A DNA stretch of 64,000 nucleotides from the IMG/VR virus record IMGVR_UViG_3300010352_001169; one strand, 5' to 3'. This stretch comes from a virus. Under the pieces are notes generated by a model. The model was given only the letters and a program-made list of their open reading frames with translations, was not told the DNA's origin and ran no database searches. How positions within the stretch are numbered: position 1 is the first letter of the stretch; the number at the start of each line of letters is the position of its first letter. The position numbers were made by a program, and so were the translations under genes. Shown piece by piece: positions 38,980-39,580 of this stretch.

Positions 38980-39200
38980 AATGTTTCATCCTTTTCATAA
39001 TTAACATAATTCATCTCATTCCAACAATCTACACAAGGAAGATCTTCTGGAACTGGATCTAGATTTCTATATTTACACGTATAACATTTAATTTCTTTAA
39101 TTTTCGTCGGCGTTTCTGATATTAATCTACTTGCTGTTTTTCTTAAAATTTCTAATTCTTTACCTTTCATTGGTTTGGTTCCTTCAAATATACTCTTCAT
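38976..39200 (-). CDS. Small protein with CxxC...CxxC
   Basis: CYTC and CVDC; ATGA-coupled to PTH2. Confidence 0.65.
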   Translation of the reverse strand: MKSIFEGTKPMKGKELEILRKTASRLISETPTKIKEIKCYTCKYRNLDPVPEDLPCVDCWNEMNYVNYEKDETL

Positions 39201-39580
39201 AATGTTTCCTTCTTTATATAATTATTTTTATCTATTTGATCTTCAGTTGCATAATCTCTTAACATTTTAGGCAAAGAGCTAGTAATCCTTCTTGAAGCTT
39301 CAGAAGGTTCAATACAGATAGCGGTAACTTGATTATCAATATCAGGTTCCCTAAAAACTGAAAAATTGATTTTGAATTTTTCTAATTTAGAAATGAGAAT
39401 ATTAAGCTCTTGCTCATTCTTGACAGTGAGCAAAGCTAAATAAGGGTCTTTTGACCACTTTTCATAAATCTACGGAAATTCTTGTGCGAATAATAAAGCC
39501 ACGTGAACAGATTGTGTAGCGGCATAACCGGGAGTGATATCTTGTCTTGTAACTACAATAAGTTTGTGAATCTACGACAT
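39197..39580 (-). CDS. Peptidyl-tRNA hydrolase 2 (PTH2 family) with in-frame TAG at codons 3 and 37
   Basis: MS*IHKLIVVTRQDITPGYAATQSVHVALLFAQEFP*IYEKW...LTVKNEQEL...FREPDIDNQVTAICIEP; AAGGAG SD upstream. Confidence 0.85.

Follow-up and report, generated by a model that had tools for sequence, protein, structure and literature searches.

A phage PTH2-like gene interrupted by conserved amber codons is linked to a suppressor tRNA in a standard-code genome

The locus and the frame behind two amber codons

We analysed 64,000 nucleotides of phage DNA (the window, by which we mean this whole stretch) that form part of a 116,659-bp contig. The source was activated sludge or wastewater, and several studies have recovered this DNA. 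On the minus strand, a single continuous frame extends from 39580 to 39197, preceded by a Shine–Dalgarno sequence and composed of ATG-TCG-TAG, 33 codons, a second TAG (codon 37), 90 codons and TAA. Downstream on the same strand lie a short leader, a conserved gene and a tRNA with the anticodon CUA. The features, in window coordinates, are:

39589..39594, minus strand: Shine–Dalgarno sequence AAGGAG, 8 nt before the ATG
39197..39580, minus strand: PTH2-like coding sequence of 127 codons plus TAA, readable only via two UAG codons
39580-39578, minus strand: start ATG, with TCG as the next codon
39572..39574, minus strand: amber codon 3, in the context ATG-TCG-TAG-ATT, the proposed gate, widely conserved
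39470..39472, minus strand: amber codon 37, in the loop between predicted helix 17-34 and helix 36-43, a proposed, lineage-specific second gate
39199-39197, minus strand: terminator TAA
38674..39200, minus strand: two small ORFs, one of 74 aa with CxxC pairs and one of 101 aa, that separate the PTH2-like gene from the leader
38637..38670 (ORF 38660-38637), minus strand: leader mini-ORF behind a strong Shine–Dalgarno sequence, AGGAGG, 5 nt, then ATG TCA TAG GTA AAG CCG CCA TAA, that is, M-S-amber-V-K-P-P-stop
38078..38545, minus strand: gene X, 155 aa, the conserved partner between leader and tRNA
37898..38032, minus strand: G+C-rich stretch of 135 nt just upstream of the tRNA (4 nt before it), with a 7-bp terminal helix
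37821..37893, minus strand: tRNA with anticodon CUA (amber suppressor), Rfam 61.6 bits, with a good cloverleaf, C1:G72, A73, G37 and a short variable loop

The code-11 ORF list contains only the last 78 amino acids of the PTH2-like gene, from an internal TTG at 39433. A preliminary description of this DNA had remarked on the truncation and had argued that the 49 codons upstream, in frame behind a Shine–Dalgarno sequence, supply the N-terminal part of a PTH2 domain; each of these points held when examined. The AAGGAG motif is also found in the closest relatives, L001 and L004. In the HMM search that the description had proposed, with TAG read through, the 127-aa product scored 24.8 bits against PF01981 (residues 6–96), just above the curated Pfam cut-off of 23 bits; the 78-aa part alone scored 14.5 bits, and the homologue in the uncultured phage LR756501 scored 31.9 bits. 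The 49 amber-hidden codons align to the family and supply strand 1 and helices 1 and 2, and the short ORF therefore cannot fold alone. An AlphaFold model computed from 24 relatives had a mean pLDDT of 88 and matched the Pth2 structures 2zv3, 3erj, 1q7s (human Bit1) and 1xty in Foldseek with TM scores of 0.65–0.76 over residues 1–105. Thirteen Pth2 chains were matched over these residues at E<=1e-3 (TM 0.52–0.76), the top 30 Swiss-Prot models matched by the predicted structure were all Pth2, and a profile of the 24 relatives found AF2095 in the PDB at E 1.7e-8. Profile and model together establish that the predicted read-through product belongs to the archaeal/eukaryotic Pth2 family and has its fold.

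The resemblance does not extend to all catalytic positions. The catalytic residues of canonical Pth2 are the Lys of a G-K motif, in the S. solfataricus enzyme reportedly Lys18 (Fromant et al., 2005), and the Asp of a D-A-G motif, Asp86 of that enzyme. Here, the Lys aligns to Tyr19, in a column without a fixed residue in the family (Y, T, H, A, V, S, Q), and the Asp aligns to Glu78 in F-R-E-P-D, a conservative change that is invariant among the relatives, as are Asp80 and Thr86. The Q..H motif and an acidic residue before the last strands are conserved, and four residues are deleted before the T-containing strand relative to canonical Pth2. Given this divergence, canonical peptidyl-tRNA hydrolase activity is not assured and we name the protein PTH2-like. 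Peptidyl-tRNA hydrolysis is a putative function, and judging from family and fold the protein would be an enzyme that cleaves the ester bond of peptidyl- or aminoacyl-tRNA.

Conservation of the ambers, the leader and the suppressor tRNA

A profile scan of IMG/VR yielded 76 further PTH2 loci, and 70 distinct phage homologues (30–81% identity) were used for counting early TAG codons. An in-frame TAG lies at the very start of the gene in 55 of the 70, down to 35% identity. An ATG precedes it by 1–4 codons in 54 of the 55, with exactly M-x-TAG in 34, and among homologues with the N-terminal extension a sense codon never occupies the site. By comparison, an ATG lay within five codons upstream of an in-frame TAG in 6 of 786 flanking ORFs from the related loci, against 54 of 70 PTH2 homologues. 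The codons flanking the early TAG vary freely (19 different ones before it, 12 after it), and the base that follows is a purine in 55 of 55 (A in 41, G in 14), against 54–59% after other TAGs in the same DNA. A 3′ purine reportedly favours suppression, according to work on E. coli suppressors by Bossi (1983) and by Miller and Albertini (1983).

The second amber has a narrower distribution. LR756501, a 735-kb uncultured phage and the closest GenBank relative (81% identity), has TAG at both positions, as do the IMG/VR contigs L004 and L006 and the 89%-identical river-metagenome contig P0002. The codon-37 TAG is common to L001, L004 and L006 (read in DNA) and to P0002; in several further database relatives the site is Q in the protein sequences as deposited. 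A tabulation of codon-37 residues in homologues, another check put forward in the preliminary description, gave E 22, D 7, T 6, V 5, TAG 5, Q 3 and others. This column is variable and mostly E or D, and therefore no inserted residue can be inferred from it; codon 3 has no sense-codon counterpart at all. Three distant homologues that lack the first amber also carry a TAG here, L070 and L077 in the codon-37 loop itself and L066 no more than about three residues from the site. These recurrences point to repeated gain of extra gates at what appears to be a tolerant site. Of the two ambers, codon 3 is the one conserved widely and codon 37 is an addition specific to this lineage, a distinction that the preliminary description had not seen; nor had it seen that the phage uses the standard code elsewhere.

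Two stops in a gene of 127 codons, together with a truncated standard ORF call, could be read as a decaying pseudogene or an assembly error. We find this scarcely credible, since independent assemblies, made in different studies and from different habitats, share both stop positions, residues are invariant across the fold and dN/dS is close to 0.2 on either side of the stops (0.19 against LR756501; range 0.19–0.27). The segment between the two ambers, which would go untranslated under the standard code, has a dN of 0.13 and a dS of about 1.0 against LR756501 and is under purifying selection. The preliminary description had judged two TAGs with no other lesion unlikely to be decay, and we agree; frameshifts and other random inactivating mutations were looked for in the homologues and none was found.

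Ambers of the same form recur in the leader, which lies between the PTH2-like gene and the tRNA, 900 nt downstream of the PTH2 start unit. The motif M-x-TAG-x(1-4)-(K/R)-P-P-stop occurs 29 times across 27 related loci, always on the strand of the PTH2 gene, against 0–2 matches (mean 0.35) in each of 20 shuffles, and it matches once in the 64-kb window. LR756501 and L004 match the leader region at 85% DNA identity. In all but one locus, where the copy is truncated, a small gene starting M-E/K-T follows 52–117 nt on, and the gap mostly holds a hairpin of variable sequence. The arrangement suggests that the leader is a second amber sensor. In this clade, the small gene after the leader is gene X. 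It occurs in 19 loci, standing between the leader and the suppressor tRNA in each locus where these two could be placed, and has 32 database relatives. It had no match in Pfam, PHROG, PDB or Atlas and a single uncharacterised relative in AFDB. Two metatranscriptome runs each gave one short contig, both on gene X and none on the PTH2-like gene; these contigs may be DNA carry-over.

We conclude that the tRNA with anticodon CUA is closely tied to the PTH2-like gene. The two share a strand, with the tRNA 1.3 kb downstream, and neither the window nor the contig has a second tRNA. The preliminary description had pointed to this neighbour, and the association proved general: 64 of the 79 PTH2 loci that entered the linkage count have a tRNA(CUA) no more than 4 kb away on the PTH2 strand, often as the sole tRNA there. 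In the most distant homologues (30–39% identity, mostly without ambers), the tRNA(CUA) starts 1–15 nt after the PTH2 stop. LR756501 has 59 tRNAs, of which 57 stand in arrays at 170–367 kb on one strand, and its two CUA tRNAs lie alone on the other strand, about 2 kb after the PTH2 gene, at 690 kb. Two named phages have comparable arrangements. In the cultured Tenacibaculum phage pT24 (LC168164; L081:2950-3909), the gene reads M-K-TAG-I and a tRNA-Sup (BPT24_227) lies 2.6 kb upstream; in the mycobacteriophage Myrna, a CUA tRNA lies 130 nt downstream of gp84. The pT24 CDS BPT24_235 is annotated from an internal codon and its PTH2-like frame begins about 45 codons upstream, so that PTH2-like genes of this kind are mis-annotated as truncated ORFs, there as in the 78-aa call here.

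One locus bears on the relation between stop and tRNA. In L058 (IMGVR_UViG_3300024262_000234, 4001-5883), the PTH2 gene starts ATG ACG TAA, the neighbouring tRNA has the anticodon UUA, and the leader reads ATG ACG TAA GTA AAT AAA CCA CCG TAG, with TAA as the inner stop and TAG as the terminator. TAA still terminates 10 of the 14 ORFs in this neighbourhood. The PTH2 stop, the leader stop and the tRNA anticodon have thus all switched to TAA/UUA, a covariation at two sites.

These data also weigh on a reading in which ATG-TCG-TAG is a two-codon minigene that ends at its TAG and gives dipeptidyl-tRNA drop-off, with any PTH2-like protein arising by re-initiation or from a start inside the gene. Such minigenes are known from the bar region of phage lambda (AUG AUA stop), where they are toxic when Pth is limiting. 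The layout here is formally a minigene with a good Shine–Dalgarno sequence, it stands before a Pth homologue and thus shares with lambda bar a tie to peptidyl-tRNA hydrolase biology, and 900 nt downstream there is another M-S-TAG unit behind a Shine–Dalgarno sequence; moreover, distant homologues begin directly with M-K-L-Y-V, which makes the residues ahead of K-L dispensable. However, in the window codon 37 is also TAG and follows the conserved segment KLIVVTRQD...Q..H, so no downstream start can give the fold, in keeping with the low PF01981 score of the 78-aa ORF. The codon after the early TAG is often no possible start (AAC, AGC, ACG, GGC). Unlike in lambda bar, conserved PTH2 sequence continues in frame past the stop in all 55 homologues, and the type of stop matches the neighbouring suppressor tRNA. 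We regard a minigene as very improbable.

The tRNA itself gives little indication of the residue that it would insert. In the window it has a C31:U39 mismatch and G37, the latter unusual for a reader of U-starting codons, and anticodon-masked comparison with 220 canonical phage tRNAs pointed to no consistent isotype, the best being Met, Gly and Asn. The CUA tRNAs form a heterogeneous set of 69 distinct sequences; the closest relatives, L001 (5436-5589) and L004 (5448-6023), carry two different ones each. At least three sequence types (CCGACAG..., CGGATAG..., CCCTCG...) occur in the clade, so different residues may be inserted. In one locus whose homologue lacks the early stop (L062:4325-4398), a tRNA directly follows the gene and has an anticodon loop that ARAGORN could not read as a triplet.

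Other neighbours are less widely shared. Of the two small ORFs behind the PTH2-like gene, the first (74 aa) overlaps its stop (ATGA); both are conserved in the closest relatives only and neither had a family match. Whether the G+C-rich 135-nt stretch belongs with the tRNA and its partners is uncertain: it had no Rfam match at E<=1, no tRNA was found in it in ARAGORN intron mode and no similar DNA was found in the related loci or LR756501, L014 having just 66 nt at this place. HDV-like theta ribozymes adjoin phage suppressor tRNAs, but 3′ of the tRNA (PMC10879173). A promoter and terminator scan of 37600-40400 returned sites no commoner than in shuffles and no terminator.

The genetic code of the phage

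Suppressor tRNAs are known from phages that have reassigned TAG throughout the genome (code 15, TAG to Gln), as in Lak megaphages and crAss-like phages (bioRxiv 10.1101/2021.08.26.457843, Borges et al.; PMC9523058). We asked what code this phage uses. In the window, frames of at least 100 codons cover 89.1% of the DNA under the standard code, 92.1% with TAG read and 92.1% with TGA read. The 116-kb contig and LR756501 are likewise about 89% and 89% coding under the standard code, respectively. The 829 ORFs of LR756501 end in TAA (630), TGA (162) or TAG (37), and after the 37 TAG terminators there is mostly another stop or a new start shortly after. By raw count, 5 of 155 long ORFs in the contig end in TAG. 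About three look genuine (62895-63173 and two outside the window); the other two are an ORF that overlaps the tRNA and one that probably does not code for protein. After TAG terminators we found no excess of back-up stops (median distance 8 codons versus 7–8, Mann–Whitney p = 0.65).

We scored N-terminal and internal extensions through TAG by codon usage in both genomes. The PTH2-like gene was the top read-through candidate, with 0.44 and 0.55 bits per codon, which equals the median of real genes. It is the only convincing TAG-interrupted gene in the 116-kb contig and the top of six candidates in LR756501, where no more than one or two weak candidates accompany it across 735 kb. LR756501 is, we believe, the largest known phage genome. 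Two further candidates there (185103-185661, with a weak HNH match, and 571399-572131, with no family) were uninformative. We conclude that the phage is not recoded at TAG genome-wide and uses the standard code outside the PTH2 locus. CheckV puts the completeness of the contig at 25%; the full phage genome is thus far larger, and the part beyond the contig may hold further genes with ambers.

It follows that the ambers are unlikely to be ordinary sense codons for Gln or another residue in a code-15 genome. Some observations do agree with such a reading: the suppressor tRNA is present, TAG terminates just a few percent of the contig ORFs, the gene callers behind the database entries read TAG as Q in the relatives, and the distant relatives of the PTH2 of this clade include Lak phages. 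Yet code-15 phages have in-frame stops in many late genes (structural, lysis) and gain coding density under code 15, whereas here density barely shifts, one gene is clearly interrupted in the contig and almost one alone in LR756501, and 37 ORFs of the latter still end in TAG. A neutral sense codon would also be expected to drift within a variable N-terminal extension, but TAG is kept in 55 of 55, and in L058 TAA covaries with tRNA(UUA) at two sites.

One of the TAG terminators stands before a chaperonin gene. At 62895-63998 on the plus strand, a 92-aa ORF (62895-63173) ends in TAG, in frame and two codons before a Cpn60/GroEL-type gene (Pfam 146 bits), and reading through this TAG would join them into one product. 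With no match in Pfam, the 92-aa ORF is not recognisably GroES.

A proposed amber gate and its relation to known systems

Conservation, linkage, stop/anticodon covariation, fold, purifying selection and a standard-code background describe an intact PTH2-like gene with two in-frame stops. Because the phage otherwise uses the standard code, we take the ambers to be a gate and not ordinary sense codons: full-length protein would probably be made only if the phage's own tRNA(CUA) beats release factor 1 at both UAGs. This presumes a charged tRNA that decodes the two UAGs and a regulatory role for the ambers. When the suppressor is absent, the ribosome would release a dipeptide at codon 3; when it is active, enzyme output would follow its activity, and having two ambers instead of one would steepen that dependence. 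An output roughly proportional to the square of suppression efficiency, as put forward in the preliminary description, is a reasonable inference for two ambers. Since TAG still terminates some phage genes, such as 62895-63173, strong suppression would have a cost. The same fact, together with the lack of back-up stops in excess, weakens a simple account in which the tRNA shuts off the host by read-through.

What the enzyme would be for can be framed in two ways. It may recycle tRNAs lost when suppression causes stalling and peptidyl-tRNA drop-off, or it may act on the suppressor tRNA itself and so set its charging level, which would amount to feedback. More broadly, the gene is part of a conserved phage module that has four members: the PTH2-like gene, the amber leader ending in K/R-Pro-Pro-stop, protein X and the suppressor tRNA. 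These could form a self-contained, self-measuring suppression circuit of standard-code phages, in which two UAG sensors report suppressor activity and the enzyme closes a feedback loop, although as a whole we hold this to be doubtful. In such a circuit, tRNA(CUA) would be used mainly against host UAG terminators or to time infection. The Pro-Pro-stop leader would control gene X and the tRNA, with the PTH2-like enzyme as the other sensor; the enzyme would set the level of read-through by acting on the acylated or peptidyl form of the suppressor or on the drop-off products of suppression. The double amber of the lineage in the window would sharpen the response.

Several known systems resemble parts of the proposed gate. 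The gene for release factor 2, prfB, autoregulates through an early in-frame UGA that is passed by a +1 frameshift, and it senses its own product. The PTH2-like gene shares with it a conserved early stop in a translation-factor gene whose synthesis would depend on how that stop is decoded; unlike in prfB, the frame is continuous through both TAGs and the sensor would read a tRNA. Arrest and leader peptides such as TnaC and ErmCL sense translation, and a C-terminal Pro-Pro-stop slows termination. The leader here is likewise short, SD-led and upstream of a gene, with a conserved C-terminal Pro-Pro-stop, but its putative signal is stop read-through by a dedicated tRNA, and both arrest and an effect on the downstream gene are putative. 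As in code-15 phages, a phage tRNA(CUA) is proposed to read in-frame UAG in a host on the standard code. Unlike in those phages, the genome keeps the standard code with TAG as a terminator, and the target is roughly one translation-related gene plus a leader, both linked to the tRNA.

PTH2 in jumbo phages, phage suppressor tRNAs and recoding as a late-gene timer are all known; what is new here is the double amber, the genome-wide standard-code background of LR756501 and the double TAA/UUA covariation. The timing of late genes by stop-codon recoding was proposed for recoded phages (bioRxiv 10.1101/2021.08.26.457843; PMC9523058), the first of which makes no mention of PTH. Pth2 in jumbo phages was noted by Iyer et al. 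(PMC7824862), with no mention of an amber gate or tRNA linkage, and the authors describing XacN1 reported CUA tRNAs without an identifiable target (PMC5852040). Our literature search returned no paper linking PTH2 with suppressor tRNAs, an early amber codon or the leader. Many large standard-code phages carry amber-suppressor tRNAs without known purpose. A stop-gated gene that is linked to the tRNA, and whose stop type follows the anticodon, would give these orphan tRNAs a first natural target, by way of a conserved switch, and a testable circuit; the cultured phage pT24 makes at least one experimental system available. The linkage also suggests a specific role for a PTH2-fold enzyme in managing stop-codon suppression, and short, portable amber sensors with matching tRNAs would be of interest for genetic-code engineering.

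Two further genes touch on translation. Adjoining the tRNA arrays of LR756501, at 358528-358854 on the minus strand (L123:1501-1827), is a gene for a 174-aa, ArfB-like protein with an RF-1/GGQ domain only (94 bits); the 116-kb contig has none such. The window begins with part of a tmRNA (1-320, plus strand; contig 43319-43707; RF00023 54 bits, cut by the window edge), for which ARAGORN reports a full gene with an unusually long tag of 33 residues ending in VVLA. A phage tmRNA together with the PTH2-like gene fits a ribosome-rescue theme.
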